In this document: positions 1 to 63,590 of the stretch, one piece after another | How positions within the stretch are numbered: the first letter of the stretch is position 1 | How the letters are laid out: every line of letters begins with the position of its first letter | From: Escherichia phage ECP2304 | Strand: one strand, 5' to 3' | Sequence record: OR880647.1 | Length of the DNA stretch: 63,590 nucleotides | The notes under the pieces: model-generated | The model's input: the letters and a program-made list of their open reading frames with translations, nothing else | Databases searched by the model: none | Told to the model about the DNA's origin: nothing | Made by a program: the position numbers and the translations under genes

Positions 1-441
1 GAATAATTTATTCCTACTTGATAGAATAATGGAATCGGTACTCCAGAGCGCAAAAACCTAAAACTTTCAGTCAACAGACTAAAAACGGATAGAAACTAAA
101 AGTTAATAAGTAATAACATAAATATATATAAAATAAGGATTTATTAGTAATGTATATAGTACCTATTGGTATTATTTGAATGTTTTTGGGTCATTGTTAA
201 AAAGTCCCAAAACTCACAAAAAGTGAAAGAATACAATTCGTGACAGGATTGTTAATGGAATAAGGTGTATGGATATACAGTATTATTCCAGATTCCGGAA
301 TAATTGGAATAATGGAATAAATTATTGAACTATTGTGATCGGAAGGTATATCAAGCTATAATGCGCTTAATCGCGGGATATTGGAGGAGGACTTTATTGC
401 GCGGTTAACCGGACCAGTAGGAGGGCTGGCCCGGAAGTAGT

Positions 442-768
442 TTAGAGCTGTACAGGTGTGAAGTGGGCTAGCGTATCGTCGGACATAATACCCGACAGTT
501 TTTCGTTTACCCAGTCGGACCAAATGCTATCCGGTTCCTGGCGGTGCACAAACCAGATTTCGGATGTGCCTTCTTTGCGCATCGGTTGCACTTCTGCAAG
601 GAACTTGTCCTGCATAAGGCGCGTGAAGCAGACGCTGGTCATTGGAACCGGCTTTTCGTCTTTATTGTAATAAGGGACCAATATTTTATTTCCGAAGTCT
701 GCAACTTCATAAACTGTTCCTTTGCGAAGGCCTCTGATGTCAGTGTAAGAGCGGATGAACTTTTTCAT
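442..768 (-). CDS. hypothetical protein (108 aa)
   Basis: ATG start, clean ORF in minus-strand gene string inside repeat. Confidence 0.5.
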   Translation of the reverse strand: MKKFIRSYTDIRGLRKGTVYEVADFGNKILVPYYNKDEKPVPMTSVCFTRLMQDKFLAEVQPMRKEGTSEIWFVHRQEPDSIWSDWVNEKLSGIMSDDTLAHFTPVQL

Positions 769-770
769 AT

Positions 771-947
771 TTATTTCCTTACGAACACAGAGCCGACGAA
801 TAATGTTGATTGAGTTGCAGCTTGCTCGATTAATTCGCCAACAAGCTGGGACTGCGTCAGAGGTTTAAGGCCTTCTTTGGCGCGAGCTTCATTTACACGA
901 CGTTGAAGGTCTTTTAGGTATTGAGTTGCGAAACTATCTAATTGCAT
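771..947 (-). CDS. small hypothetical protein (58 aa)
   Basis: ATG at 945-947 preceded by AAGGA RBS; stop 771-773; below track size cutoff. Confidence 0.4.
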   Translation of the reverse strand: MQLDSFATQYLKDLQRRVNEARAKEGLKPLTQSQLVGELIEQAATQSTLFVGSVFVRK

Positions 948-996
948 CTTCTTATCCTTAGGGCTCCCGCAGAAGCCCGTTGAATGTGGTTATCGA

Positions 997-1146
997 CTAT
1001 AACGCTGCAAACATAAGCAGACGAATATTAACTGAAGTTTGGCTATTAAAGTCTTGACATTCTTTGATAATCTCTTCTTCACTTTTACCACTAAGTTTAG
1101 AATATTCTGTGATTGCTTGTTTTAATACAGAATCAAAATTGTTCAT
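997..1146 (-). CDS. small hypothetical protein (49 aa)
   Basis: ATG at 1144-1146 preceded by AAGGAGG RBS; translated by hand to TAG at 997-999. Confidence 0.45.
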   Translation of the reverse strand: MNNFDSVLKQAITEYSKLSGKSEEEIIKECQDFNSQTSVNIRLLMFAAL

Positions 1147-1156
1147 TTTATCCTCC

Positions 1157-1771
1157 TTATGCGTCCAGACCGTTGTATTTGCGCCAGGCGTAGAACTGAA
1201 TGGCGACAGTTGTTCCGTTGTAAGAAGGCATTGCAGCTTTCATCTCTTTCAGCGCCGGCGTGCGGCCCAGTTCCTTCAGAAGCTTGTCACCCATTGCCCA
1301 CACTTCGGCAGTTTTTCCTTTAAGGGGCTTGCGAGCGCCATTTTTGAAATCGCAGCGAGCAGCTTTTGCATCCTGTTTTGGAGCGGCAGCTTTTGGCTCT
1401 TCAATTTTGATTTCAGAAACCTGCGTGGCAGCTTTTGCGTGTTTCATATCTTTCTCTTCCTCCTGCTCCAAAGCTTTGAGGCAGCTTTTGACGATTTCCG
1501 GATTTACCATCGGGCGCAGTACCGAGGCGCTAGCAGCTGGAGCGGCGGTCGGTGCTGGGGCTTTCTGCTCCGGCTTTTGAGCTTTTTCGTGATCGCGCAG
1601 CACCTGAAGGACTTCCTTTTCGACGATGTAAAAACCGATATCGTCCTGATGGATAAGCTGTTCGTGTGCGTCGCGTGCAACCTGGCCCCAGCGAGTTTTC
1701 AGAGCGCGGCGTGCATTCGTTTTCATGGTGTAGCGCATTTTGTCCTGTTCGCGGTGAGTTACTTTAGACAT
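1157..1771 (-). CDS. hypothetical protein (204 aa), basic N-terminus and Ala/Pro-rich linker
   Basis: ATG at 1769-1771 preceded by AAAGGAG RBS; in-frame with track ORF 1157..1816. Confidence 0.6.
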   Translation of the reverse strand: MSKVTHREQDKMRYTMKTNARRALKTRWGQVARDAHEQLIHQDDIGFYIVEKEVLQVLRDHEKAQKPEQKAPAPTAAPAASASVLRPMVNPEIVKSCLKALEQEEEKDMKHAKAATQVSEIKIEEPKAAAPKQDAKAARCDFKNGARKPLKGKTAEVWAMGDKLLKELGRTPALKEMKAAMPSYNGTTVAIQFYAWRKYNGLDA

Positions 1772-1844
1772 GGTATAGCTCCTTTCGTTAATGTTAGTTT
1801 GCTTATTACTGCCCACCGTAATGATGAGCAGTGTATAAGAAAAC

Positions 1845-2093
1845 TTACTGCACGATTGCTACGAAATCGGCGGTTGCGATATCCATGCTTGCAAACGCTT
1901 TGACGGTGTAGCTGGTATCTGCCGCGGCGTTGAAGTCGCTCAGGAACTGTTGTACCGCGTGCTCATGGTTGAGCATTACGTCTACATTGCAGTCCCAGCT
2001 ATAAACCTTGCGCTGACCGAAACCTTTAACTGCAATACGCGCGCCTTTGGTGTTGGTTGGTGCCAAAAATTTGGTGACGATAGAAGTAGCCAT
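1845..2093 (-). CDS. hypothetical protein (82 aa)
   Basis: ATG with GAGGA RBS. Confidence 0.55.
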   Translation of the reverse strand: MATSIVTKFLAPTNTKGARIAVKGFGQRKVYSWDCNVDVMLNHEHAVQQFLSDFNAAADTSYTVKAFASMDIATADFVAIVQ

Positions 2094-2166
2094 GATGTAA
2101 TCCTCGTTTTGTTTAAGTTGACTTATTATTGCCCAGTCAGATCAACTAGGCAAGATATAAATCAGC

Positions 2167-2391
2167 TTATTTAACCATCAAGGCCCATCTTTTATAGCCG
2201 TTCAGCTCCATTCTATGACCGTGGTCGTTGCAGTAACGTTGGATATTATTAAAGTCGTTATCGTTCATATCGCTGACGTCAATATTAAAATAGTTGCGCT
2301 TTGCAGGTGTAACGTATTGGGATAACTGCATTGAGTACAGATGTTCAATGTTGTCGATAATAGCTTGCTGAACTTTAGTGATAGTAGCCAT
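2167..2391 (-). CDS. hypothetical protein (74 aa)
   Basis: Internal ATG at 2389-2391 preceded by GGAGGTG RBS; track ORF extends to 2451. Confidence 0.5.
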   Translation of the reverse strand: MATITKVQQAIIDNIEHLYSMQLSQYVTPAKRNYFNIDVSDMNDNDFNNIQRYCNDHGHRMELNGYKRWALMVK

Positions 2392-2781
2392 GATACACCT
2401 CCTAATGTGGTTAAGCAGTATTGCTTTGTTGAAGTAATAATAGCCTTGCATCGTGATATTGAATAGGCCAAACGTGCTATTTTGATATTGTTTTGCATCT
2501 AGTGAAAATCATGCTTGTATCGCATATTTAGCACTAATGGCCTAACTAACATCACACGATCTGGTCTACGCGCGTGCATACATACATATAAGGAGTGCCG
2601 GACAGGATCGGACCGACCAGGGGCGCTCAACCGTCTCTGTCCGTCCTGTAAGCTGGTCCCCGGACTGGTCCAAAATATTTTTATAAAAAGATGCAAAAAG
2701 GTGTAGACATATGATCAATCTAACCCTACTATATACACATACCGCAAGGGTACTACAAATTAACTTAAAGGGGTTTACATC

Positions 2782-2985
2782 ATGTCTATTCGTAGCGTTA
2801 TCTGTGTAATGGTTGCAAACAATAATTTTGGTTTCGTAGAAGGTGCAGAGTATAAAATGGATCTTAAGACTCGTTGCATTATTAAAGGTGAAGAGGAATG
2901 GCGTGCAGTGGTAGAAGATCGCGGCGATATCTACATCTATAGTTCTGATACAATGAAAACTATTGCCGTCTTCGAATTTAACTAA
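2782..2985 (+). CDS. hypothetical protein (67 aa)
   Basis: ATG with AAAGGGG RBS; first plus-strand gene after divergent intergenic region. Confidence 0.55.
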   Translation: MSIRSVICVMVANNNFGFVEGAEYKMDLKTRCIIKGEEEWRAVVEDRGDIYIYSSDTMKTIAVFEFN

Positions 2986-3053
2986 GCTAACTTATACAAT
3001 GGGCATTAGTACAGTGCCCATTAATAAGCTAACTAATTATAACGAGGTGTATT

Positions 3054-3239
3054 ATGTCTACGAACACTGTGAAGTCTGTAAATAATAGCAACAGAACATT
3101 TAAAGTTATCTATTATGGCGAATATATTGGAGACGTTACAGCTCCCAGCCGCATCGCTGCGGAAGACTTCGTCCGTACAGAGATGGAGCTTGGAATCGCC
3201 GATTTTGCAGCCATTATCGAACTGGTAGAGGTATTCTGA
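3054..3239 (+). CDS. hypothetical protein (61 aa)
   Basis: ATG with GAGGTG RBS. Confidence 0.5.
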   Translation: MSTNTVKSVNNSNRTFKVIYYGEYIGDVTAPSRIAAEDFVRTEMELGIADFAAIIELVEVF

Positions 3240-3240
3240 T

Positions 3241-3381
3241 ATGCAACGCAAATACACGCTTACACGCGCACAGCACGCGTTATTGATTGCAGCTATGCGC
3301 GCAGAATATGCAGTACACGGCTGGCATAGCGCCATGATGCGAGGTAAAAGCATATATGCAGACATATGCTCGCAAGAATAA
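3241..3381 (+). CDS. small hypothetical protein (46 aa)
   Basis: TGAtATG coupling to upstream gene; hand-translated to TAA at 3379-3381. Confidence 0.35.
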   Translation: MQRKYTLTRAQHALLIAAMRAEYAVHGWHSAMMRGKSIYADICSQE

Positions 3382-3944
3382 CGCACACAGCAGCACCACA
3401 GCGAGCTAAAGCTCAAAGGTAATGGTAATGCATTACCAACACACAATAAGCACGCTGTACCCAGCAAAGCGGCGCTAATTTCAACACTCACAGGCTGTAC
3501 GTTAACGCGTACGGCCTGCTCTGCTATATGCACGCCATGTATATAGCCAGCTCACAATGCACATCAATATAATTACGAATGAAATGGATTCGTCTGGAAG
3601 AATAACAATTCTTACAGTCACAGACCGGTCCAATGAGCCAACTCATAGACCCCACCTAGGATCATCAGGGTACTAATAATCACCCGAGGGCCCTTATCCA
3701 TCCTGATAGTAAGTGCTTGCCTAAATCTTACCCATCACTTTACTATCCACATACATCCATGACCCCACCTACCTTCTTTTTGAATATATTGCGCTCATCC
3801 TTTCTAAATATATGGATTTTGGTAGTAAATTCTGAGTCGTCAACGTATAATCCGTCTTGTAGCTGCCCCATAGCTACCATCTTTAAGCGGATGCAACCAA
3901 TTTCTATCAATTCTCACCAGTTTTAGAGCATCAAGGAGGTATTT

Positions 3945-24498: not shown

Positions 24499-27137
24499 TG
24501 CCACCAGCAATAATTGGAGCAGCAATAGCTTTAGGTGCTTCCGCTGCCGCTGCGGCGGGGTGGATTGCTACGGGCGTAGCTTTGGCTATTGGTATGGCTG
24601 CAACTGCGGCAGGTGCTCTTTTAACTAAGACACCTAATATGAACTTTAATGCTTATAAAGGTCAACAAGAGCGTAAGCAGGTTTTACGAGCGGCCGCAGC
24701 GTCCCGAACAGTGGTATACGGGACAACGGTTGCTTCCGGTGTTATGACGTTTGCCGAGGAGCAGCCTGGTGATCAAGACGAAGACGAACTCCTGCATATG
24801 GCGCTTGTTGTAGCTTCACATCCATTGGAGGGGATTGGTGATATTTGGCTTGGGGATGATCTTGTACAGACTTTCGAACAGTATGTTACTTGGGAATTTC
24901 ATAACGACCGTCAGACTGTAGATCCATTCATGTTAAGTAATTGCCCTTCCTGGAAAGAGGATATGATTGGGAAAGGGATTGCATGGCTTCGCATTAGCTT
25001 TAAATTTAATGCGGAAAAATTCCCGTCCGGCTTGCCAAACATTAAGCTCCTTAAAAGAGGTCGCCGTGTATATGATCCTCGTTCTGGTTATACCATATTT
25101 AGCGATAATGCAGCTTTAGTAATACTTGATTACTTCCGCACGTATTTAAAGCGAAAAGATGAAGATATTAACTGGGACCAGTTCAAAGAAGCTGCTAACA
25201 TCTGTGATGAATACGTCAATAACGCTGATGGTTCTACAGAGCGCCGTTATAAAATTAACGGTGAATTTGAAGTAGATGAGGCCCCCTCCAAAATTCTGGA
25301 TGCTATGTTGCAAGCTTGCGGTGGCGAGCTAACGTATGTGGCTGGTAAACACGGTCTTCTGGTTGGCGCATATTACGGTCCAGCAACAATGACGCTGGAC
25401 GAAAGTTGTATTGCTGGGGATATTAAGATTGTTCCAGAGACTTCTTATAAGGAGCGCACAAACACCATCACAGGGACATTTATTGATCCGAAGCAGAACT
25501 ACGTTGAAGCAGACTTCCCTCCAGTTGTGGTTAAGGAATGGGTGGAAAAGGATGGCGGGGAAATAACTCAGGACATGGATTTTCGTTTTGTAACTAGTGA
25601 ATATCAGGCACAACGTTTGTCTAATATTATTCTACGTCGTAAACGTGTTGGACGTACAATTGAAATCCCTTGTAATATGAAGGGTTATAAGTTCCGTCCA
25701 GGAATGTATGTAAAAGTTACCATCACGCAGATTGGCATGAAGAATGTTGAAATGCGCGTTACCAAATGGTCTTTTAATCCTAAAGGTGGTGTTAACCTTA
25801 CATTACGTCAAGATTTCCTGGAAATGTGGGACGATGCAATTGGTAAGCCTATGGACCGACCGGATCTTGTAGACTTGCCCAGTGGTGGTGTTGCTCAGCC
25901 TCAAAATCTTCAATACCAGATATTGCAGATTAGTGATGTGGTACAAGGGGTATTATCCTGGACCAACATGGGGCAAGTTGCATATAACCGCGTAGCCGTG
26001 CGACAGGGTGGCGTTACTATTTGGACCGCACAAGTCCCTGGCCAAAGCGTTCGTGTTACTGGGTTGCTGCGGGGAGCGTATACTGCGCACGTTCAAGCTG
26101 TATCGCACAGTGGCGCAATATCACCGGAAGCGTATCTGGAGTTTAATATTCAAGCCCCGCCGCCACCTTCATCTGTCGAAATACAGAACGGTTATTTTTC
26201 TTTAACTCTTATACCAAAGATTGCAGAGCTGACTAGTGTTAGCACACAATTTGATTTCTGGACGTCTGGTGAAACAAAACTGCCATCTGCTAATACAGAT
26301 GTTGTCGAGCGCGATGCTACCCGTGAAGGTATGGGTACTATATGGCAGAAAAATAACTTACTCAATGACCACACTTATTACTGGTATATAAGAACCATCA
26401 ACGCCTTTGGCTCGTCCGCGTTTGTGGAAGTTGAAGCTCGTGTATGGGCAGAAACTGCACAAATCATAGAAATTATGGATAAAGAGTTTCAAGAAACTGA
26501 GACTTTCAAAAACCTCATGGAGACTGTACAAAAGGTTGATGACGGTGTAACAGAATTGTCCAAAGTGGTAGAAGGTCAAGCTTCCAAGATAGATTCTGTT
26601 CAGACAAGTGTGGGTAATGTTGTTGTCACCGTGCAAGAACAGTCACAAGCACTAGCAGACCTTAACGGCAAACTTTCCGCTCAATGGGGTCAAAAAGTTC
26701 AGATTGACAATAATGGTAATAAATATGTTGCAGGTATGCAGCTAGGTATTGAAGGTAGCGGAGGACAATTCCAGTCTTACTTCATGGTAAGTGCGGACAA
26801 CTTCGCTATTTATAATCCTGTAGCGGGAGCAGCACAGCTTGCTTTTGCTATTAAAAACGGTCAAAGTTTCTTACAAGAAGCCTTTATTGAGAATGGCTCA
26901 ATCACCAACGCCAAGATTGGTAATGTTATTCAGTCCAATAACTGGAATGGTAACGATCAAGGTTGGGCAATTACAAAAGACGGTTATTGCGTATTTAATA
27001 ACGTTACCGTCAGAGGAACGGTCGTCGCTAACGCTGGTCAATTTGGTTTCAACGGAAATGGAGGTATTACAATTGATAGTAACGGTATTCGCGTTCCGTT
27101 ATCCGGCGGTGGTGTTGTCATAGTAGGACGCTGGTAA
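24498..27137 (+). CDS. tail tip / host specificity protein (J-like)
   Basis: 879 aa; ATG 24498 after GGAGGG; Gly/Ala-rich hydrophobic N-terminus; position after K-like gene. Confidence 0.6.
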   Translation: MPPAIIGAAIALGASAAAAAGWIATGVALAIGMAATAAGALLTKTPNMNFNAYKGQQERKQVLRAAAASRTVVYGTTVASGVMTFAEEQPGDQDEDELLHMALVVASHPLEGIGDIWLGDDLVQTFEQYVTWEFHNDRQTVDPFMLSNCPSWKEDMIGKGIAWLRISFKFNAEKFPSGLPNIKLLKRGRRVYDPRSGYTIFSDNAALVILDYFRTYLKRKDEDINWDQFKEAANICDEYVNNADGSTERRYKINGEFEVDEAPSKILDAMLQACGGELTYVAGKHGLLVGAYYGPATMTLDESCIAGDIKIVPETSYKERTNTITGTFIDPKQNYVEADFPPVVVKEWVEKDGGEITQDMDFRFVTSEYQAQRLSNIILRRKRVGRTIEIPCNMKGYKFRPGMYVKVTITQIGMKNVEMRVTKWSFNPKGGVNLTLRQDFLEMWDDAIGKPMDRPDLVDLPSGGVAQPQNLQYQILQISDVVQGVLSWTNMGQVAYNRVAVRQGGVTIWTAQVPGQSVRVTGLLRGAYTAHVQAVSHSGAISPEAYLEFNIQAPPPPSSVEIQNGYFSLTLIPKIAELTSVSTQFDFWTSGETKLPSANTDVVERDATREGMGTIWQKNNLLNDHTYYWYIRTINAFGSSAFVEVEARVWAETAQIIEIMDKEFQETETFKNLMETVQKVDDGVTELSKVVEGQASKIDSVQTSVGNVVVTVQEQSQALADLNGKLSAQWGQKVQIDNNGNKYVAGMQLGIEGSGGQFQSYFMVSADNFAIYNPVAGAAQLAFAIKNGQSFLQEAFIENGSITNAKIGNVIQSNNWNGNDQGWAITKDGYCVFNNVTVRGTVVANAGQFGFNGNGGITIDSNGIRVPLSGGGVVIVGRW

Positions 27138-45385: not shown

Positions 45386-47368
45386 TTAGAACGGAACGTA
45401 ATCCGGATCATCTACTTGTACAGGATTAACCACATTGTTCACCGTTATACCTTGCGTATTCTGTGAAACAATATCATCCCAGCTCACATCATCATTATAG
45501 CTTGGACCTTCGGTTGTTCCATCCTGCCCGTATACTTTAACCTGAATAGCTTCGTCGTCCTGTGGTGCTTCAAACTTACCGAAACACGTACCATCATAAT
45601 CATAGTTCAATATCTCAGGCCATTTCTTATTGGTATGAACTTTGATGTATTTTGGTGTTTTAAGCATTGCAGCAACATCAAGAGCTTCTTCAATAGTTTG
45701 TGGTAAAGGTAGATGCGTCCTTTTCTTCCACCATGCGACCGCTTTACGACCTGCCCAGTCACCATGAAGTAGAGCTACCCATTCGCTGAATATTTTACTA
45801 CCGCAATAATAAGTCACCTTCATTGTTGGAGGTTTAGAGCTGTCATTGCGTTTAGTGTGCTTCGCATAAGTAACATGCGTAACTTTAAAGTCTTCAACTA
45901 CCGGAATGTCCTGCTTGATCAATGCTTCGGTACTTGCTGCCTTTTTAAGTTTGGTTTGGAACTTAAACTCATGACCGCAAAATCCTTCTTTAACATAATC
46001 CGTTCCACGTAGTCTAAATCCCTTCAAATATAATTGTTGAACTTGTTCCTGTGTAACGCTGTTCATAGGGATTGGTGCAAAGCCACCGCAATAGCGAGCA
46101 GATGCATGATTATACGACCCGCACACATCGCATTCTTTAACCGGAGCAGTACCAGCACCTTTTTCGCCCGGGCGCTTGGGTTTAACAGGGTCGTTAATGG
46201 GGCCCAAACGGCGCGTATTACCGCTGAAATCCAGTACAAGGCAGTTCTGCTTAGGGCTTGCCGCAATAGCTTGCAAGCGGCCTTCCTGCGTGGAAAGATC
46301 AAATCCTTCCGCGTATACCGGACGCGTACCGCGACCCAACATCTGAACCCATAGCACAGCCGACGCAGTTGGGCGGAGCATGATAATTAAGTCCAGCATT
46401 GGATGATCAAAACCTGTGGTTAAGACGTTATTGTTAGTTAATGCTCGAAATTCACCGCGCTTGAATTTTTCAATAATCTCGTCACGTTCTTTTGCATCAA
46501 GCTTAGAGTGAATACATCCACAGCTAATACCCATATCGTTCAGCATATCGCACGCGTCTTTAGCGTGTTCAATACCAGAACAAAATATAAGCCAGCTTTG
46601 ACGGTCTTCACCACATTCAATTGCTTCCTCAAGTGCGCGGAGTGTTGCGTCATCGCGGTTTACCGCACTTTGCAGCTCACTCTGAATAAACTCACCGCCG
46701 CGTTTCCCTACACCATTGAGGTCCAGTTCCATCTTTGTACGCTTTGGCACAACCGGAAGCAAATAGCCTTGCTCCAGGAACCAGTTAAACGCTTCAGGGG
46801 TAGTTGCATCAAACGTTACTTTATCAAATAAAGCATCATCGTCTTTGTTTTCCTTAACAATTGAGCCGTAACCCAGTCGGTAAGGTGTAGCGGTAAGACC
46901 GATAATTTTTAAATACGGGTTAACTTCACGCAATGCTGCAAAGAACTTCTTATACATTGTTGCATCACGCGGACTAATAAGGTGCGCTTCATCCACAAAG
47001 ATTAGATCAACCTTGCCGAACTTTTTAGGATGCTTAGCAACAGATGCAATCCCCGCAAATGTGATAAGATTATAAACTTCTTTACGCTTCAAACCTGCGC
47101 TGTAAATACCTGCTGGCGCTTCAGGCCAGACTTTCATTAATTTATCATAGTTTTGCGCGATCAACTCTTTGACGTGAGTTAACATCATTACGCGCTGGTT
47201 TGGATACCATTTATAAAGCAGATCGAGGAACCCCGCGATAACGAGCGATTTTCCTGTCCCTGTTGGTAACAGGATCAAAGGGTTCCCCGCGTTACCCTTT
47301 TCAGCATCAAAATAGCGGAATACGCTATAAACTGCTTCCTGTTGATAATCGCGGAGCTGCATAATCAA
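45386..47368 (-). CDS. SF2 DEAH-box DNA helicase
   Basis: Walker A LPTGTGKS; FVDEAH; C-terminal Cys cluster; 660 aa. Confidence 0.7.
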   Translation of the reverse strand: MIMQLRDYQQEAVYSVFRYFDAEKGNAGNPLILLPTGTGKSLVIAGFLDLLYKWYPNQRVMMLTHVKELIAQNYDKLMKVWPEAPAGIYSAGLKRKEVYNLITFAGIASVAKHPKKFGKVDLIFVDEAHLISPRDATMYKKFFAALREVNPYLKIIGLTATPYRLGYGSIVKENKDDDALFDKVTFDATTPEAFNWFLEQGYLLPVVPKRTKMELDLNGVGKRGGEFIQSELQSAVNRDDATLRALEEAIECGEDRQSWLIFCSGIEHAKDACDMLNDMGISCGCIHSKLDAKERDEIIEKFKRGEFRALTNNNVLTTGFDHPMLDLIIMLRPTASAVLWVQMLGRGTRPVYAEGFDLSTQEGRLQAIAASPKQNCLVLDFSGNTRRLGPINDPVKPKRPGEKGAGTAPVKECDVCGSYNHASARYCGGFAPIPMNSVTQEQVQQLYLKGFRLRGTDYVKEGFCGHEFKFQTKLKKAASTEALIKQDIPVVEDFKVTHVTYAKHTKRNDSSKPPTMKVTYYCGSKIFSEWVALLHGDWAGRKAVAWWKKRTHLPLPQTIEEALDVAAMLKTPKYIKVHTNKKWPEILNYDYDGTCFGKFEAPQDDEAIQVKVYGQDGTTEGPSYNDDVSWDDIVSQNTQGITVNNVVNPVQVDDPDYVPF

Positions 47369-48273
47369 TCTTTCCCGTAATAGTTAGCTACTTGATAGTT
47401 TTGACAACCAACTTTTTGACCCTGCGTATCTACTGCAATGGAATGAAAATTGCAATACCATGTTCCATCATCTTTTGGCTCAAGAAATTGACATGTACGA
47501 CAGTTTACTTCCGGCATAGTTTTACGCCAGCACAATGAGGAATGGTCGCACCATTTGCATTCGAAGAAGGTAGAGTCTTTGAATGCACGGTCAGGAATAT
47601 CCGTAGCAATAGCAATCTGCACACCACGATCAATATACATGTCCGCAGTGACCGGATCAAATGGAATAATTTCTGCGTAAACTTCATCATCGTTCTTGTT
47701 TACAGCAAGATATAACGCTGCACCAAGTCCAAGCTTTCGCATATACACGTTCATCTGCACATAGTGCTCAGGTTTAGCTTCTTTGACACCTTTAGCTTTC
47801 AGCTTCTTGAAAGACTTATCATTATGGGTCTTCATTTCAGTAAGCACGGGCATTCCAGGCTGAACGTCCGGACAACCTATAACCACACCATCGCATGAAC
47901 CGCCAAAGTGTCCGCCAGCTTCGCTAATACGGAACTGGTGTCCGTTTTCATCCTGCTGGTAAACCTGCATACCTGCCGCAAGAAGCATAGCAATAAAGCG
48001 CGCTTCTTCCAGATGTCCGCGGTTAAATAAGCGGAGCTGGCGTCCATCAAACTCTTTACGCGTAGCCCAGCGATACCCATAGAACAGTTTGCGAGCACAT
48101 TGCTGTCCAATAAGGGAAGCGCCTAAGTGACTGCGATTTCCGCTTTCAGGACGATATGCGTCTTCAATTGTGGGAATAACTACGCCGAGATATTTACGGT
48201 AAGTCCCACCCTGATCTTTTTGCACACCGTCATTGATCGCTTGAAGTGTTTTTTCTGCAATATAAATAGCCAT
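47365..48273 (-). CDS. PD-(D/E)xK nuclease (Cas4/RecB-like exonuclease)
   Basis: D...EMK motif and C-terminal multi-Cys cluster. Confidence 0.5.
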   Translation of the reverse strand: MAIYIAEKTLQAINDGVQKDQGGTYRKYLGVVIPTIEDAYRPESGNRSHLGASLIGQQCARKLFYGYRWATRKEFDGRQLRLFNRGHLEEARFIAMLLAAGMQVYQQDENGHQFRISEAGGHFGGSCDGVVIGCPDVQPGMPVLTEMKTHNDKSFKKLKAKGVKEAKPEHYVQMNVYMRKLGLGAALYLAVNKNDDEVYAEIIPFDPVTADMYIDRGVQIAIATDIPDRAFKDSTFFECKWCDHSSLCWRKTMPEVNCRTCQFLEPKDDGTWYCNFHSIAVDTQGQKVGCQNYQVANYYGKD

Positions 48274-48338
48274 TGGAATACCTTAGAAAAATAAGCCGTC
48301 TTTCGACGGCTTATGGACACTACAGAGGGAGGGTTAAC

Positions 48339-48760
48339 TTACTGCTGCCACGGCGGGACTGCTGCTTGTGCCGGATGGGGTTCAGCTTGCTGCTGTGGCT
48401 GCGCTTGCTGCTGTGGTGCTGCTGCCTGGCCCGGCTGTGCTACCTGCTGCGCCCACGGCTGCTGAGCTGCTTCCGGTGCTACTGGCTGTTGTACCGGAGC
48501 TTGCTGAACTGGCTGCTGCGGCGCTGCGTTTTGAGCAGGATTATCCCACGGCTGCGGTGCTGCGTTCTGCCACGGTTGAGCTGCTGCTGCGCCCTGCTGC
48601 GGTGCTGGTTGCTGCTGCACAGGCGGCTGAACTGGCTGCTGTTGCTGTACCGGAGCTTGCTGCTGTACAGGTGCTTGCTGTTGCTGAGCAAACGGGTTAG
48701 CTGCTGGCTGCTGTGGCGCTGCGCCCGGGAAAGTTGGCTGCTGTGCTGGCGCACCTGCAC
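48339..48760. repeat. CAG/CTG-rich low-complexity repeat tract
   Basis: Reiterated GCTGCTG/CTGGCTG units; creates spurious plus-strand ORFs. Confidence 0.7.
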
Positions 48761-49226
48761 CAAACGGGTTAGCTACTGCTGGAGCACCCATTGATGGAGC
48801 CTCTGCTGCTTTTTCTGCATATTTAACCGGATCGTTGATGTTAGCGTAACCGTTAGGCTCGTTGCTGTCTTCATAACCTTCCTGAGAACGAACTTTCAGA
48901 CGCAGGTTCAGCGGAATGTTATGCAGCTGAGCAGGGGTATCCCAGCGAATTACACCAACCGCATGGGACAGAGCACCCAGTTGCTCGTAAGCGATGCGTA
49001 CAGTATCTTCGTTGTCGTTAATGACGTTATAACGAGCAAAGATTTTACGCCCTTTAGCAAAACCGTCAATGATGCTAAACGTTACCTGGATCGCCATACC
49101 GCCATTTTTGGTCGGTTTAAATTCAGATGCTTCAATTACTGCTTTATACCAACCTTTCGGCAATGCGCCGTAAGAAGGTGCTTGATAGCTGCTCGCGTCA
49201 AAGTGGAAATTAGTTGGCATAGTCAT
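48339..49226 (-). CDS. putative ssDNA-binding protein with long Q/P-rich C-terminal tail
   Basis: Globular N-terminal 130 aa then about 160 aa of PQQ/AQQ repeats; sits between Sak4-like ATPase and nuclease. Confidence 0.45.
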   Translation of the reverse strand: MTMPTNFHFDASSYQAPSYGALPKGWYKAVIEASEFKPTKNGGMAIQVTFSIIDGFAKGRKIFARYNVINDNEDTVRIAYEQLGALSHAVGVIRWDTPAQLHNIPLNLRLKVRSQEGYEDSNEPNGYANINDPVKYAEKAAEAPSMGAPAVANPFGAGAPAQQPTFPGAAPQQPAANPFAQQQQAPVQQQAPVQQQQPVQPPVQQQPAPQQGAAAAQPWQNAAPQPWDNPAQNAAPQQPVQQAPVQQPVAPEAAQQPWAQQVAQPGQAAAPQQQAQPQQQAEPHPAQAAVPPWQQ

Positions 49227-49954
49227 TAGTTGATACCTTTCATTTTGTTGATAACAGAACCTAAGTGTGGGACTTCAACCGCATCTAAACGTCCCGAACG
49301 ATCCTTAGCGATTGTATTAAAGTCCGGTTGAGTTTGCAAGTAACGATATGAGTTACCTTGCTGATCCTTATTTACATTCAGACGAAACACTTCGTCGAAG
49401 AAGTAAGGGAGCATTTGCCCCAATTTGGACCCAGGCATAGATGGAGCATACGCGGTAACACCGGAGACTTCATCTTTGTCTTTGCCCATTTTAGCAGACA
49501 TATAAACATGTTTGCCAGGAATATCGCGAAATTTACGGATCAGATCTTGCATCTTTTCAAGCAAAGTACCATAAGCTTGACGAGGATCTTTTGTTCCTTT
49601 TTTCGCATTGTTTAAACATTGTTCAGCAATTTCGCTCAAGCTGTCAAGCGCAATAGAATCGAAATACTGCTGGTTAGCTGGAGTTACACACCACTGATAA
49701 GCAGCTTCAACGTCCTCCAGACATTTAACTTCAATAACTGGGATATCATAAACGATCGGCAATCCCATGTTACCATAAACGCGATTAAGGTTTTCCGCTG
49801 CAATAGATAACAGACCGGACTCTGCGCTGATCAAAATTGGTTTAGGTAGTGTGGCTACAAGGCTGGTTTTACCCATACCCGCTTCACCGTAAACCAGAAT
49901 TTTAACACCTGTGTCCTGCACAACTTGTGAAGACATTTTAATTTCAATGGCCAT
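49226..49954 (-). CDS. Sak4-like recombination ATPase (RecA-fold)
   Basis: Walker A GEAGMGKTS; about 240 aa; adjacent to SSB-like gene. Confidence 0.5.
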   Translation of the reverse strand: MAIEIKMSSQVVQDTGVKILVYGEAGMGKTSLVATLPKPILISAESGLLSIAAENLNRVYGNMGLPIVYDIPVIEVKCLEDVEAAYQWCVTPANQQYFDSIALDSLSEIAEQCLNNAKKGTKDPRQAYGTLLEKMQDLIRKFRDIPGKHVYMSAKMGKDKDEVSGVTAYAPSMPGSKLGQMLPYFFDEVFRLNVNKDQQGNSYRYLQTQPDFNTIAKDRSGRLDAVEVPHLGSVINKMKGIN

Positions 49955-51575: not shown

Positions 51576-51603
51576 TTAATAAAAAGGGGTCTGTTGACCC
51601 CTT
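51576..51603 (-). terminator. rho-independent terminator (minus strand)
   Basis: AAGGGGTC-AACA-GACCCCTT followed by TTTTTATT on minus strand. Confidence 0.65.
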
Positions 51604-51849: not shown

Positions 51850-52662
51850 TTACAGTTTGTCTTTGAACTCTTCGATATATTGCTCAATCGGATACTGCTT
51901 ACGCTTGAAACGATCAAACAAGATTTTAGCGTTGCGAACTGCTTCAACATCCAATTGCACATCTTTGGCAACTTCTTCGGCGTTAGGTTTAACCATAAAA
52001 TCACGCCATGTAAAACCGTTCAGATTATGCATCTTAGCGATGTGCTTGTTGTAACGGCTTTCCCAGTCCACACGCGGATCTTCCATCTTGCGTAAACCGC
52101 GCCCAAGCACCTGTACATATAGATCTTTCTGACGTTGTACAGCTTCGCCATTATAAGGTCCGGTTTTAAACTCAACAACACTACCGTTAAGATCTACACC
52201 ATCTGCAAAGTTGTGTAGCATAGTTTCAATGACGTCATTCAATGTTGGAACCGTCACTTTACCCTGAGCAATACCTGCTAAATAACCGACGTTTTCTTCA
52301 CCGTACAACTCGATCAGTTCTTTCTTGGTTGCTTCTGCTTCTTTGTTTGCGGACAAAGCCAACATCTGTTGTTCGAACATGTGTTCCTGTTCCAGGAAGT
52401 GAGCATAGCGCTCTTCGTCTACTTTGCACACAATCCATTTATATTCAACATCCTTGCTGAAGTCCGGATACTGATCTACTTCTACTACTTCCGTAGTAAA
52501 GAACTTGCCGTTATATTGAATAACAACTGTATCGCCCGGCTGCAATTCGTCACTTTCCAGAGCACGGTAGGTATAAAGGCGACCACCTGCTTCAAACTTA
52601 ACTTTGACAGTTACAACGCCTTTTAACAGAGCATGATAAGCTTTCTGATATTCTTTACGCAT
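51850..52662 (-). CDS. hypothetical protein (270 aa)
   Basis: Clean ORF in replication module. Confidence 0.55.
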   Translation of the reverse strand: MRKEYQKAYHALLKGVVTVKVKFEAGGRLYTYRALESDELQPGDTVVIQYNGKFFTTEVVEVDQYPDFSKDVEYKWIVCKVDEERYAHFLEQEHMFEQQMLALSANKEAEATKKELIELYGEENVGYLAGIAQGKVTVPTLNDVIETMLHNFADGVDLNGSVVEFKTGPYNGEAVQRQKDLYVQVLGRGLRKMEDPRVDWESRYNKHIAKMHNLNGFTWRDFMVKPNAEEVAKDVQLDVEAVRNAKILFDRFKRKQYPIEQYIEEFKDKL

Positions 52663-52703: not shown

Positions 52704-53114
52704 TTAGGCTTTATTCGGCACAATTTCCAGAGACGCGGAACCAACTTTCGATTCAACGCACTGGTTAAAGACTGCGGCTTGCTCCGCTGTAAGTTTACGC
52801 CAAGCCGCAACTTTCAACACAGGTTTATTTTCCACAAGCTGATCAACGTTAACACCAACTTTAATCAGATCTCCCAGGATTCCGTTAAGGCTTGGAAGAT
52901 CAATCTTGCGATCAATCTTGTGTGTCATTTTCATAACCCCGCCAGTAATTTCAACTTTATTAGTCCCTTCTGATGGAGCAGGGAAATAGGACTTAATAAT
53001 CTTTTCGCGTAGTGCTCGCTCGCGAGCTTGAAGCTTTTGTAATTCTGCTTTGGTTTTATACCACTCAATAACATCTGCTTCGGTTGCTTGTACTGCTTTA
53101 TCTGCGTCGAACAT
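52704..53114 (-). CDS. hypothetical protein (136 aa)
   Basis: ATG 53112-53114 after GAGGA. Confidence 0.5.
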   Translation of the reverse strand: MFDADKAVQATEADVIEWYKTKAELQKLQARERALREKIIKSYFPAPSEGTNKVEITGGVMKMTHKIDRKIDLPSLNGILGDLIKVGVNVDQLVENKPVLKVAAWRKLTAEQAAVFNQCVESKVGSASLEIVPNKA

Positions 53115-53355
53115 TTTTCTATCCTCTGTTGTGTTTCGATGTATGTATAATAGCACATCCATGTGACAGGGCAAGACTCAATCTGTATCAATTAATCTTT
53201 TTAAACGGATTAGTAATCTAGCAACCTTCCTCCATTCGGCATCCTCCATTAATGGTGAAGGCTTATACGCTTCAGGTATCGGACAAGGTATATAGGGTTC
53301 CATGTCAGATATTACTTGCTTTGATAACTTTTTCTTCCGTTTACCCATAAATAGC

Positions 53356-59787: not shown

Positions 59788-60336
59788 ACCCTAACACCCA
59801 AATCCCGACTGTTAGTAAAAAACGTATATAAATCAATAGCATAGATACTAAATGAATAGTGATTGGAATGGGTAGAAATCCAAATGATGGAAGTGGAATA
59901 ATTTATTCCTACTTGATAGAATAATGGAATCGGTACTCCAGAGCGCAAAAACCTAAAACTTTCAGTCAACAGACTAAAAACGGATAGAAACTAAAAGTTA
60001 ATAAGTAATAACATAAATATATATAAAATAAGGATTTATTAGTAATGTATATAGTACCTATTGGTATTATTTGAATGTTTTTGGGTCATTGTTAAAAAGT
60101 CCCAAAACTCACAAAAAGTGAAAGAATACAATTCGTGACAGGATTGTTAATGGAATAAGGTGTATGGATATACAGTATTATTCCAGATTCCGGAATAATT
60201 GGAATAATGGAATAAATTATTGAACTATTGTGATCGGAAGGTATATCAAGCTATAATGCGCTTAATCGCGGGATATTGGAGGAGGACTTTATTGCGCGGT
60301 TAACCGGACCAGTAGGAGGGCTGGCCCGGAAGTAGT

Positions 60337-60663
60337 TTAGAGCTGTACAGGTGTGAAGTGGGCTAGCGTATCGTCGGACATAATACCCGACAGTTTTTCG
60401 TTTACCCAGTCGGACCAAATGCTATCCGGTTCCTGGCGGTGCACAAACCAGATTTCGGATGTGCCTTCTTTGCGCATCGGTTGCACTTCTGCAAGGAACT
60501 TGTCCTGCATAAGGCGCGTGAAGCAGACGCTGGTCATTGGAACCGGCTTTTCGTCTTTATTGTAATAAGGGACCAATATTTTATTTCCGAAGTCTGCAAC
60601 TTCATAAACTGTTCCTTTGCGAAGGCCTCTGATGTCAGTGTAAGAGCGGATGAACTTTTTCAT
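60337..60663 (-). CDS. hypothetical protein (repeat copy of 442..768)
   Basis: Identical duplicate in right repeat. Confidence 0.5.
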   Translation of the reverse strand: MKKFIRSYTDIRGLRKGTVYEVADFGNKILVPYYNKDEKPVPMTSVCFTRLMQDKFLAEVQPMRKEGTSEIWFVHRQEPDSIWSDWVNEKLSGIMSDDTLAHFTPVQL

Positions 60664-60665
60664 AT

Positions 60666-60842
60666 TTATTTCCTTACGAACACAGAGCCGACGAATAATG
60701 TTGATTGAGTTGCAGCTTGCTCGATTAATTCGCCAACAAGCTGGGACTGCGTCAGAGGTTTAAGGCCTTCTTTGGCGCGAGCTTCATTTACACGACGTTG
60801 AAGGTCTTTTAGGTATTGAGTTGCGAAACTATCTAATTGCAT
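60666..60842 (-). CDS. small hypothetical protein (repeat copy of 771..947)
   Basis: Identical duplicate. Confidence 0.4.
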   Translation of the reverse strand: MQLDSFATQYLKDLQRRVNEARAKEGLKPLTQSQLVGELIEQAATQSTLFVGSVFVRK

Positions 60843-60891
60843 CTTCTTATCCTTAGGGCTCCCGCAGAAGCCCGTTGAATGTGGTTATCGA

Positions 60892-61041
60892 CTATAACGC
60901 TGCAAACATAAGCAGACGAATATTAACTGAAGTTTGGCTATTAAAGTCTTGACATTCTTTGATAATCTCTTCTTCACTTTTACCACTAAGTTTAGAATAT
61001 TCTGTGATTGCTTGTTTTAATACAGAATCAAAATTGTTCAT
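60892..61041 (-). CDS. small hypothetical protein (repeat copy of 997..1146)
   Basis: Identical duplicate. Confidence 0.45.
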   Translation of the reverse strand: MNNFDSVLKQAITEYSKLSGKSEEEIIKECQDFNSQTSVNIRLLMFAAL

Positions 61042-61051
61042 TTTATCCTCC

Positions 61052-61666
61052 TTATGCGTCCAGACCGTTGTATTTGCGCCAGGCGTAGAACTGAATGGCG
61101 ACAGTTGTTCCGTTGTAAGAAGGCATTGCAGCTTTCATCTCTTTCAGCGCCGGCGTGCGGCCCAGTTCCTTCAGAAGCTTGTCACCCATTGCCCACACTT
61201 CGGCAGTTTTTCCTTTAAGGGGCTTGCGAGCGCCATTTTTGAAATCGCAGCGAGCAGCTTTTGCATCCTGTTTTGGAGCGGCAGCTTTTGGCTCTTCAAT
61301 TTTGATTTCAGAAACCTGCGTGGCAGCTTTTGCGTGTTTCATATCTTTCTCTTCCTCCTGCTCCAAAGCTTTGAGGCAGCTTTTGACGATTTCCGGATTT
61401 ACCATCGGGCGCAGTACCGAGGCGCTAGCAGCTGGAGCGGCGGTCGGTGCTGGGGCTTTCTGCTCCGGCTTTTGAGCTTTTTCGTGATCGCGCAGCACCT
61501 GAAGGACTTCCTTTTCGACGATGTAAAAACCGATATCGTCCTGATGGATAAGCTGTTCGTGTGCGTCGCGTGCAACCTGGCCCCAGCGAGTTTTCAGAGC
61601 GCGGCGTGCATTCGTTTTCATGGTGTAGCGCATTTTGTCCTGTTCGCGGTGAGTTACTTTAGACAT
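61052..61666 (-). CDS. hypothetical protein (repeat copy of 1157..1771)
   Basis: Identical duplicate. Confidence 0.6.
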   Translation of the reverse strand: MSKVTHREQDKMRYTMKTNARRALKTRWGQVARDAHEQLIHQDDIGFYIVEKEVLQVLRDHEKAQKPEQKAPAPTAAPAASASVLRPMVNPEIVKSCLKALEQEEEKDMKHAKAATQVSEIKIEEPKAAAPKQDAKAARCDFKNGARKPLKGKTAEVWAMGDKLLKELGRTPALKEMKAAMPSYNGTTVAIQFYAWRKYNGLDA

Positions 61667-61739
61667 GGTATAGCTCCTTTCGTTAATGTTAGTTTGCTTA
61701 TTACTGCCCACCGTAATGATGAGCAGTGTATAAGAAAAC

Positions 61740-61988
61740 TTACTGCACGATTGCTACGAAATCGGCGGTTGCGATATCCATGCTTGCAAACGCTTTGACG
61801 GTGTAGCTGGTATCTGCCGCGGCGTTGAAGTCGCTCAGGAACTGTTGTACCGCGTGCTCATGGTTGAGCATTACGTCTACATTGCAGTCCCAGCTATAAA
61901 CCTTGCGCTGACCGAAACCTTTAACTGCAATACGCGCGCCTTTGGTGTTGGTTGGTGCCAAAAATTTGGTGACGATAGAAGTAGCCAT
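61740..61988 (-). CDS. hypothetical protein (repeat copy of 1845..2093)
   Basis: Identical duplicate. Confidence 0.55.
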   Translation of the reverse strand: MATSIVTKFLAPTNTKGARIAVKGFGQRKVYSWDCNVDVMLNHEHAVQQFLSDFNAAADTSYTVKAFASMDIATADFVAIVQ

Positions 61989-62061
61989 GATGTAATCCTC
62001 GTTTTGTTTAAGTTGACTTATTATTGCCCAGTCAGATCAACTAGGCAAGATATAAATCAGC

Positions 62062-62286
62062 TTATTTAACCATCAAGGCCCATCTTTTATAGCCGTTCAG
62101 CTCCATTCTATGACCGTGGTCGTTGCAGTAACGTTGGATATTATTAAAGTCGTTATCGTTCATATCGCTGACGTCAATATTAAAATAGTTGCGCTTTGCA
62201 GGTGTAACGTATTGGGATAACTGCATTGAGTACAGATGTTCAATGTTGTCGATAATAGCTTGCTGAACTTTAGTGATAGTAGCCAT
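62062..62286 (-). CDS. hypothetical protein (repeat copy of 2167..2391)
   Basis: Identical duplicate. Confidence 0.5.
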   Translation of the reverse strand: MATITKVQQAIIDNIEHLYSMQLSQYVTPAKRNYFNIDVSDMNDNDFNNIQRYCNDHGHRMELNGYKRWALMVK

Positions 62287-62676
62287 GATACACCTCCTAA
62301 TGTGGTTAAGCAGTATTGCTTTGTTGAAGTAATAATAGCCTTGCATCGTGATATTGAATAGGCCAAACGTGCTATTTTGATATTGTTTTGCATCTAGTGA
62401 AAATCATGCTTGTATCGCATATTTAGCACTAATGGCCTAACTAACATCACACGATCTGGTCTACGCGCGTGCATACATACATATAAGGAGTGCCGGACAG
62501 GATCGGACCGACCAGGGGCGCTCAACCGTCTCTGTCCGTCCTGTAAGCTGGTCCCCGGACTGGTCCAAAATATTTTTATAAAAAGATGCAAAAAGGTGTA
62601 GACATATGATCAATCTAACCCTACTATATACACATACCGCAAGGGTACTACAAATTAACTTAAAGGGGTTTACATC

Positions 62677-62880
62677 ATGTCTATTCGTAGCGTTATCTGT
62701 GTAATGGTTGCAAACAATAATTTTGGTTTCGTAGAAGGTGCAGAGTATAAAATGGATCTTAAGACTCGTTGCATTATTAAAGGTGAAGAGGAATGGCGTG
62801 CAGTGGTAGAAGATCGCGGCGATATCTACATCTATAGTTCTGATACAATGAAAACTATTGCCGTCTTCGAATTTAACTAA
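62677..62880 (+). CDS. hypothetical protein (repeat copy of 2782..2985)
   Basis: Identical duplicate. Confidence 0.55.
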   Translation: MSIRSVICVMVANNNFGFVEGAEYKMDLKTRCIIKGEEEWRAVVEDRGDIYIYSSDTMKTIAVFEFN

Positions 62881-62948
62881 GCTAACTTATACAATGGGCA
62901 TTAGTACAGTGCCCATTAATAAGCTAACTAATTATAACGAGGTGTATT

Positions 62949-63134
62949 ATGTCTACGAACACTGTGAAGTCTGTAAATAATAGCAACAGAACATTTAAAG
63001 TTATCTATTATGGCGAATATATTGGAGACGTTACAGCTCCCAGCCGCATCGCTGCGGAAGACTTCGTCCGTACAGAGATGGAGCTTGGAATCGCCGATTT
63101 TGCAGCCATTATCGAACTGGTAGAGGTATTCTGA
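62949..63134 (+). CDS. hypothetical protein (repeat copy of 3054..3239)
   Basis: Identical duplicate. Confidence 0.5.
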   Translation: MSTNTVKSVNNSNRTFKVIYYGEYIGDVTAPSRIAAEDFVRTEMELGIADFAAIIELVEVF

Positions 63135-63135
63135 T

Positions 63136-63276
63136 ATGCAACGCAAATACACGCTTACACGCGCACAGCACGCGTTATTGATTGCAGCTATGCGCGCAGA
63201 ATATGCAGTACACGGCTGGCATAGCGCCATGATGCGAGGTAAAAGCATATATGCAGACATATGCTCGCAAGAATAA
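63136..63276 (+). CDS. small hypothetical protein (repeat copy of 3241..3381)
   Basis: Identical duplicate. Confidence 0.35.
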   Translation: MQRKYTLTRAQHALLIAAMRAEYAVHGWHSAMMRGKSIYADICSQE

Positions 63277-63590
63277 CGCACACAGCAGCACCACAGCGAG
63301 CTAAAGCTCAAAGGTAATGGTAATGCATTACCAACACACAATAAGCACGCTGTACCCAGCAAAGCGGCGCTAATTTCAACACTCACAGGCTGTACGTTAA
63401 CGCGTACGGCCTGCTCTGCTATATGCACGCCATGTATATAGCCAGCTCACAATGCACATCAATATAATTACGAATGAAATGGATTCGTCTGGAAGAATAA
63501 CAATTCTTACAGTCACAGACCGGTCCAATGAGCCAACTCATAGACCCCACCTAGGATCATCAGGGTACTAATAATCACCCGAGGGCCCTT

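Follow-up and report, generated by a model that had tools for sequence, protein, structure and literature searches.

The sequence studied here is a 63,590-nt window (OR880647.1, Escherichia phage ECP2304), and our subject is a gene on its minus strand whose product resembles the proteins that bind single-stranded DNA (ssDNA), known as SSBs, and ends in a long tail rich in glutamine, alanine and proline. A 1.3-kb query around the locus has 93-98% nucleotide identity to 33 GenBank phages (Seurat, CAjan, KS_A3, BASEL Bas21-25 and others), and the window is a Seuratvirus (Queuovirinae) coliphage genome. The gene, its two parts and its immediate neighbours lie at the following positions of the window:

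48339-49226, minus strand: complete coding sequence of the DUF669-type SSB-like protein (ATG start, 295 amino acids (aa) and a stop codon)
48807-49226, minus strand: N-terminal globular domain, aa 1-140, DUF669, predicted oligonucleotide/oligosaccharide-binding (OB) fold
48342-48806, minus strand: C-terminal tail, aa 141-295, Q/A/P-rich and predicted to be disordered from AlphaFold2 per-residue confidence (pLDDT) and composition
49226-49954, minus strand: Sak4-like AAA_24 ATPase gene, upstream (Pfam 1.2e-27; phrog_124, 1.7e-59)
47365-48273, minus strand: Cas4-domain exonuclease gene, downstream (phrog_1990, 1.7e-117)

Residues 1-135 have an ordinary amino-acid composition, and aa 8-131 match Pfam DUF669 (PF05037) with an E value of 6.9e-14 (52.6 bits against a gathering cut-off of 21; profile positions 2-126 of 138). 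In PHROGs, the protein matches phrog_13350 over its full length (2e-137) and, more weakly, three families labelled 'single strand DNA binding protein', phrog_6015 and phrog_378 among them. AlphaFold2, given a 51-sequence alignment, predicts aa 21-140 at pLDDT 93-98 in the order strand-strand-strand-helix-strand-strand; this is OB topology, a five-stranded barrel with the helix between strands 3 and 4, and the pLDDT of the N-terminal 140 aa is about 97. The DUF669 match and the predicted OB fold thus uphold the original prediction, made from the sequence alone, that the gene encodes an SSB-like protein. DUF669 is the sole Pfam family reported at E <= 0.01, the bacterial-type SSB family PF00436 giving no match, and no true homologue was found among PDB sequences, either by phmmer with the protein or with a family profile built from the 51-sequence alignment (A1). 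The only PDB match of that profile (E 3e-4), in which it aligned with the flexible P/Q-rich tether of ZipA from E. coli, was rejected as compositional rather than homologous; it illustrates the resemblance of the tail to a known entropic-spring linker.

Structural comparison of the predicted domain with Foldseek places the OB protein PrgE of the plasmid pCF10 (PDB 8S4S/8S4T) first among PDB entries (E 1.7e-6, TM 0.6 normalised by target), followed by about 40 bacterial SSB chains (E 4e-3 to 4e-2), while the predicted viral structures of BFVD return, at E 6e-20 to 1e-7, DUF669 proteins and entries that carry an SSB name. A potential alternative is therefore that the protein is a non-classical, PrgE-like OB protein, which forms a filament on both ssDNA and double-stranded DNA (dsDNA), or which protects or organises phage DNA ends for the module of Sak4, Cas4 nuclease and helicase. 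PrgE has only 11-14% identity to the present protein, lacks a long Q/P tail and is encoded on a conjugative plasmid. Against this alternative, the phage would then appear to have no other SSB: E. coli SSB, the sole canonical query used, matched nothing in the window by tblastn (best E 6, elsewhere than in this gene), and the Pharokka annotation of the close relative KS_A3, which recognises polymerase, primase, helicase, ligase, RNase H, Sak4, Cas4 nuclease and RusA within the first 50 kb, names no further SSB there. Moreover, the SSB of phage HK620, assigned to DUF669 by Hutinet et al. (an assignment that we did not reproduce), is a bona fide ssDNA binder (PMC5928155). We consequently regard a PrgE-like role as unlikely.

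A low-complexity tail that varies in length

The tail (aa 136-295) consists of 29% Q, 26% A and 21% P, a combined 76%, and its C-terminal end is HPAQAAVPPWQQ, in keeping with the description in the original prediction of a Q/P-rich tail of about 160 residues ending in PPWQQ. Most of aa 143-281 is modelled by AlphaFold2 with pLDDT below 50. Among all open reading frames (ORFs) of at least 100 aa in the window, 48345-48848 is the sole stretch that reaches 60% Q+P+A in a 60-aa window, and the tail is therefore far beyond chance. At the nucleotide level its GC content is 63%, against 44% window-wide.

The same prediction attributed the tail to a CAG/CTG repeat tract. This holds in so far as 13 of the 27 GCTGCTG heptamers of the window fall inside the tract and 35 of 160 tail codons are CAG; it fails for perfect repeats, the longest trinucleotide run being 11 nt, GCAGCAGCAGC. 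Tandem Repeats Finder reports weak short arrays, the best an 18-nt unit in 2.1 copies (48643-48680, score 62), together with a period-3 array of 71% matches (score 32). With so short a perfect run, and arrays so weak and short, we reject a true CAG/CTG microsatellite, and the tract is instead codon-biased low-complexity coding DNA with short imperfect repeats. A reading of the tract as a Chi hotspot was likewise rejected, as it holds no Chi site; elsewhere, the window has GCTGGTGG at 10824 and 13734 and the complementary sequence at 24501. Stop-free ORFs also run across the tail in other frames (48273-48794 and 48368-48700 on the plus strand, 48479-48763 on the minus strand). We rejected these as genes, since they are by-products of CAG, GCA and CCG codons, whose complements CTG, TGC and CGG yield Leu/Cys/Arg-rich strings on the opposite strand, and selection acts on the SSB frame.

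For comparison among isolates, the gene was extracted and aligned from 19 sequences (the window, 15 GenBank relatives and 3 metagenomic viral contigs). The features of the tail, from its N-terminal to its C-terminal end, are as follows:

48762-48773, minus strand: first ANPF motif, aa 152-155 (F155), invariant in 18 close isolates and lost in STP-SP5
48690-48701, minus strand: second ANPF motif, aa 176-179 (F179), invariant in 18 close isolates, with NPF kept in Salmonella phage STP-SP5
48576-48680, minus strand: indel hotspot, aa 183-217, PVQQ-type imperfect repeats and a (GCA)n run, with at least 9 distinct in-frame indels among the 19 sequences
48546-48578, minus strand: two internal QPW motifs, QPWQN (W219) and QPWDN (W227), both Trp invariant in 19/19
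48453-48461, minus strand: third internal QPW, aa 256-258, within QQPWAQQ; in the 51 sequences of A1, P257 is invariant and Q256 and W258 are each kept in at least 90%
48342-48377, minus strand: C-terminal tip HPAQAAVPPWQQ, aa 284-295, with PPW at 48348-48356; identical in 18 of 19 sequences, with one A-to-S change in L003

The 19 sequences carry 11 length alleles, from 277 to 302 aa. Every indel is a multiple of three and the frame is intact in all of them, so that no frame-shifting on/off switching was seen in this set. Several indels coincide exactly with short repeats: phage SA126VB lacks precisely one 18-nt unit of the 48643-48680 array; the window, alone among the 19, has one extra GCA within the longest perfect triplet run; and phage Greed has a 54-nt (18-aa) deletion bordered by CAGCAGCC direct repeats. 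The pattern of these events, as read from the alignment, is the signature of slippage or short-repeat deletion, and the length polymorphism of slippage type that had been anticipated for this tract does exist, on a modest scale.

Selection nonetheless limits change in the tail. Pooled pairwise ratios of nonsynonymous to synonymous differences (pN/pS) are 0.16 for the tail and 0.08 for the domain, the former indicating that the tail is under purifying selection. All four Trp (in QPWQN, QPWDN, QQPWAQQ and VPPWQQ) are unchanged in 19/19, the full QPWQN and QPWDN motifs vary only in STP-SP5 (QPWA-G) and L002 (PPWQN), hardly any change affects the last 45 residues in the 18 close isolates, and W293 is invariant throughout A1. 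To judge from these sequences, the tail is constrained and is not a free-running repeat: the length of its spacer drifts, while the Trp and Phe motifs and the PPW tip are kept. This constraint was overlooked in the original prediction, where the conserved PPW tip was recorded merely as the end of the sequence. The tip also departs from the acidic, hydrophobic- or aromatic-ending form (as in DDDIPF), given that HPAQAAVPPWQQ has no acidic residue in its 12 positions and its Trp is followed by QQ.

A composition of 29% Q over 160 residues might also suggest a prion-like or amyloid-forming domain, and the SSB linker of Campylobacter hominis has reportedly been described as a prion-forming domain. 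However, frequent proline is incompatible with the extended beta-sheet stacking of amyloids, and proline recurs at least every 8 residues throughout this tail (the longest proline-free stretch being 8 residues), which disfavours such behaviour; in addition, the tail is without structure in the AlphaFold2 model. We therefore consider amyloid or prion formation highly improbable.

Diverged homologues and the pairing with Sak4

Because the low-complexity tail would bias a search for homologues, only the N-terminal 140 aa served as the query against 1.84 billion representative proteins. This exhaustive search, which replaced an earlier word-index search with the same 140 aa that had yielded 1 protein among 4 candidates, found 5,142 clusters at E <= 1e-3 and 1,435 at E <= 1e-10. 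By tblastn, the domain is present in 330 phage records, including those of phages of Pseudomonas (94), Escherichia (55), Salmonella (48) and Vibrio (27).

Long tails are present in 130 of the best 150 clusters, and the tail statistics below refer to these 130 representatives, which share at most 50% identity. Their tails measure 81-213 aa (median 147) and contain between 1 and 8 Trp each, amounting to 2.6% of tail residues. All 130 have their last Trp at a distance of 1-11 residues from the C-terminus, and in 118/130 it follows Pro-Pro, giving a tip consensus of [T/V/L]-P-P-W-[A/M/Q]-[Q/R/K]. Pro precedes 57% of all tail Trp, against a Pro content of 22% in the tails. Of the tails, 118 have 4 or more aromatic residues, and in 82% of these the aromatics are spaced more evenly than under random placement (mean z -0.9, sign test 7e-13), a statistic that is indicative only, because the sequences are related and the motifs may stem from duplication.

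The spacer, in turn, is built from different residues in different lineages. The tail of Pseudomonas phage Kakheti25 is G/Q/P-rich, with five GAAWGGQ-type motifs and the end APWGQR, and its repeat GGAWGGQPQQ closely resembles QGGWGQPQQ of E. coli SSB. Coliphage Halfdan has an N/G/Q-rich tail with GGSWGNQ-type motifs and the end PAWGQPR, and the Nonagvirus JenP2 (L033:1486-2415) has a Q/G-rich tail with GFPGAFGQQ repeats that ends in TPPWKRSTEGDDAAQ. In JenP2, QGFPGAFGQQPQQQ units form phenylalanine-glycine (FG)-type repeats in a Q-rich spacer, followed by two W motifs and a PPWKR...DDAAQ end; these repeats are reminiscent of cohesive nucleoporin FG domains.

A further set of family members has acidic tips. 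Rosemountvirus KE25 has a short tail with the end EEDDADAPWNQ, and other ends in the family are ...DDDSDLPF (P0201), ...DDVPPFE (P0154) and ...DSDLPPWMQ (P0170). Together with the neutral tails, these form, as sequences, a graded series from an acidic [I/L/P]-P-F tip to a neutral PPW. We regard this series as the strongest evidence for PPW as the equivalent of the C-terminal tip of SSBs.

These data bear directly on the possibility that the tail is a neutral, low-complexity by-product of slippage in CAG/GCA-rich DNA, an inert spacer at most, with the OB domain alone of importance. Such neutrality would account for the presence of 11 length alleles in 19 near-identical phages (including the 18-aa deletion of Greed) and for a spacer whose composition changes completely across lineages, from Q/P/A here to G/Q in Kakheti25, N/G/Q in Halfdan and Q/G/F in JenP2. 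It sits poorly, however, with a pN/pS of 0.16, with indels that are all in frame and restricted to the spacer hotspot, and with W and NPF motifs and a last 45 residues that are essentially invariant. Moreover, a long tail with a PW tip is kept in all 130 diverged representatives, and a Trp content of 2.6% is unusually high for disordered low-complexity sequence. We consider a neutral tail decidedly unlikely.

Gene order, too, is conserved in the family. An AAA_24 gene lies directly upstream of the DUF669 gene in 4/4 metagenomic or NCBI loci (one of them with an acidic tip), and an annotated Sak4, AAA or RecA-like gene does so in Kakheti25, KE25 and Halfdan, making 7/8 other DUF669 loci in total; in the eighth, JenP2, the gene upstream carries just a 'hypothetical' annotation. 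The order Sak4 then SSB is also found in HK620 and in N4 (gp44 then gp45). BLASTP of the window Sak4 against the HK620 and N4 Sak4 proteins aligned the P-loop only, or nothing. In the window, the TAA stop codon of the Sak4-like gene shares a base with the ATG of the SSB-like gene (TAATG at 49224-49228). Further upstream in the direction of transcription are RNase H and ATP-dependent ligase genes, followed by Sak4 (AAA_24), and downstream the Cas4-domain exonuclease is followed by a 660-aa DEAD/ResIII helicase (45386-47368). An extended order of DUF7173, RNase H, ligase, Sak4, DUF669, a gene of about 300 aa and helicase is shared with Pseudomonas phage MiCath and with metagenomic contigs, where the approximately 300-aa gene in the nuclease position has no Pfam hit. 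The recombination context ascribed to this gene on the basis of its two neighbours is consequently reinforced, both by the overlap with Sak4 and the adjacent nuclease and helicase, and by the persistence of the Sak4-DUF669 order in distant phages.

A terminator-like element follows the gene:

48291-48314, minus strand: intrinsic-terminator-like hairpin from a consensus scan, with a 10-bp stem and then TTTTT, 25 nt past the SSB stop

A rho-independent terminator is annotated at the same site in phage SA126VB. A second terminator-like hairpin (51584-51603, minus strand, 8-bp stem and T-run) lies just upstream of the RNase H gene, and between the two there could be a transcription unit of RNase H, ligase, Sak4 and SSB. 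Nearby on the same strand are a DUF7173 protein gene (52704-53174, Pfam 4.6e-31), whose gene block is the one kept in MiCath and the metagenomic contigs, and a 270-aa ORF (51850-52662) whose weak Pfam match to the PriA 3' DNA-binding domain stays below threshold (E 0.0074; 16.6 bits, where 22.7 are required).

Two observations concern the sequence records themselves. Bases 1-3695 of the window recur at 59896-63590, every compared 25-mer being identical; with the first 3,695 bases thus repeated at its end, the unique genome is 59,895 bp, and the window wraps round a circularly permuted or terminally redundant assembly. In addition, Aeromonas phage SD04 (MH230177) and Cronobacter phage CSP1 (KY982929) have 95.5-96.5% identity to the window over the 1.3-kb locus, reflecting either a broad host range or questionable host records.

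Characterised systems and the proposed function

DUF669 has been proposed to comprise SSBs with an OB fold that are highly diverged and akin to N4 SSB, with tails described as acidic (Kazlauskas et al. 2016, PMC4889955). The protein studied here resembles that family in its domain match, its predicted OB fold and its occurrence in a phage seemingly without a canonical SSB, whereas the large clade around it has long, near-uncharged Q/P/A, G/Q or N/G/Q tails with Trp motifs and a PPW tip. A second comparison is with HK620 SSB (HkaK/Abc1), a tetrameric SSB encoded beside sak4 and assigned by its authors to Pfam DUF669. Without its six C-terminal residues, NDYPPF, Sak4 does not bind ssDNA coated with this SSB, and the same residues are required for stimulation of annealing and for recombineering (Hutinet et al. 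2018, PMC5928155). Both genes lie directly downstream of sak4, and both products combine an OB-type domain with a Pro-Pro-aromatic motif near or at the end (NDYPPF in HK620, VPPWQQ here). However, the HK620 tail is about 40 aa long, acidic and aromatic-ended, whereas the present one is about 155 aa long and neutral, has two residues after its Trp and carries three extra internal PW motifs; its PPW is highly conserved, yet neither terminal nor acidic. Elsewhere, Sak4 and its cognate Ssb act as a unit in staphylococcal phages (PMC5499656).

Comparison with E. coli SSB extends to the linker. The two proteins share an arrangement of OB domain, disordered linker and tip, with a linker rich in Q, P and small residues. 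The present tail differs in being 2.5 times longer, A-rich rather than G-rich, endowed with 7 aromatics against 2 in the E. coli linker, and devoid of an acidic tip. The two aromatics of the E. coli linker, W136 and F148, matter for condensation (PMC12143593), and aromatic-sensitive condensation of E. coli SSB is also documented in PMC7584906.

The SSB of phage N4 (gp45) reportedly activates E. coli RNA polymerase at late promoters, according to work from the Rothman-Denes laboratory, and this invites the suggestion that the Q/P-rich tail is a transcription-activating or host-RNA-polymerase-contacting region, making the protein a late-gene activator like N4 SSB with its C-terminus. N4 SSB has been reported as a remote relative of DUF669 on the basis of profile methods (PMC4889955, PMC5928155), and it too is encoded directly downstream of a Sak4-like gene, in the order gp44 then gp45. 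The direct similarity is, however, insignificant in our hands (hhalign probability 9% over 24 columns of A1), and the N4 tail is short, basic and G/A-rich, ends in SLFGKK and has no PW motifs. A role in transcription thus appears very unlikely.

Having weighed these alternatives, we think it likely that the gene encodes the phage's own ssDNA-binding protein, which would act together with the Sak4 annealase and probably the replisome as well. The OB domain would coat ssDNA, and the tail would be the equivalent of the disordered linker and tip of bacterial SSBs, with [T/V/L]-P-P-W-[A/M/Q]-[Q/R/K] standing in for the acidic DDDIPF and NDYPPF tips. By analogy with the PPF tip of HK620, the PPW tip may recruit Sak4 to SSB-coated ssDNA, and perhaps also a helicase, nuclease or polymerase. 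The evenly spaced QPW and NPF aromatics could make multivalent weak contacts that lead to cooperative binding or condensates, as the W- and F-containing Q/G/P linker of E. coli SSB does, while the PVQQ/(GCA)n segment would serve as a length-tolerant spacer. Because such a spacer tolerates changes in its length, replication slippage and deletion between short direct repeats would give rise to the length polymorphism.

Several considerations weigh against this interpretation. Kinship to the HK620 and N4 SSBs rests on published profile analyses, and direct homology to these characterised proteins is unconfirmed here, because both hhalign comparisons of A1 are insignificant (probability 1% over 36 columns for HK620 SSB, and 9% over 24 columns for N4 SSB); moreover, HK620 SSB itself has no Pfam DUF669 match at E <= 0.01. 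Sak4 is a candidate partner of the tip by analogy only, and the classical mode of SSB C-terminal binding, in which a basic pocket receives the terminal carboxylate and acidic residues, is inapplicable unchanged, because the Trp is non-terminal and the tip uncharged. The even spacing of aromatics could be a product of motif duplication and shared ancestry, and MAFFT columns in the low-complexity tail are unreliable except at the Trp anchors. Finally, PrgE, which heads the structural matches, is atypical for an SSB in that it binds both dsDNA and ssDNA (PMC11137577).

DUF669 is already known as a Sak4-linked SSB. Our literature search found no paper on a PPW-type SSB tip, on a neutral aromatic-patterned tail, or on this gene in Seuratvirus or Queuovirinae; the DRT10 preprint deals with another protein, from phage Bas52, which is SSB-like but has two OB domains and the tip FDDDIPF. 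More tentatively, it is possible that a large DUF669 clade, spanning hundreds of phage genomes and thousands of metagenomic clusters, follows a previously undescribed tail grammar, in which evenly placed Trp/Phe 'stickers' within a freely evolving uncharged spacer are combined with a non-acidic, non-terminal PPW. Such tails might drive condensation of SSB-coated ssDNA into replication and recombination compartments and recruit Sak4 by a non-classical mode, which could keep the phage SSB apart from the interaction partners of the host SSB.

Annotation of the gene is inconsistent across its relatives. In most records of Seuratvirus relatives it is a 'hypothetical protein', and the name 'DUF669 domain-containing NTP-binding protein' also occurs on relatives. 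Other records of relatives have spurious product names at this locus. A DUF669 homologue is called 'multimodular transpeptidase-transglycosylase' in Vibrio phage BA3 and in the UniRef name for MiCath; this name, at least, seems to stem from a chance match to the low-complexity Q/P/A tail. In phage Greed the Sak4 gene is named 'methyl-accepting chemotaxis protein', and 'cell division protein FtsK' and 'methyl-accepting chemotaxis protein' are among the three genes under the match in CSP1C.

On ssDNA, the proteins of replication, repair and recombination are organised by SSB tails, which act as hubs, and present knowledge of these tails comes, as far as we are aware, entirely from the acidic DDDIPF-type tip. 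In a widespread phage lineage, PPW seems to have replaced this acidic tip and the aromatics of the linker seem to have multiplied, while linker length drifts between isolates. If this is true, these phages would offer a natural series in which to test how linker length, aromatic valence and tip chemistry affect recruitment of the Sak4 annealase and SSB condensation, and would allow better annotation of a gene now called hypothetical or mislabelled as FtsK, a chemotaxis protein or a transpeptidase. Their Sak4/SSB pairs would also be candidate recombineering tools, in which the cognate tip matters.

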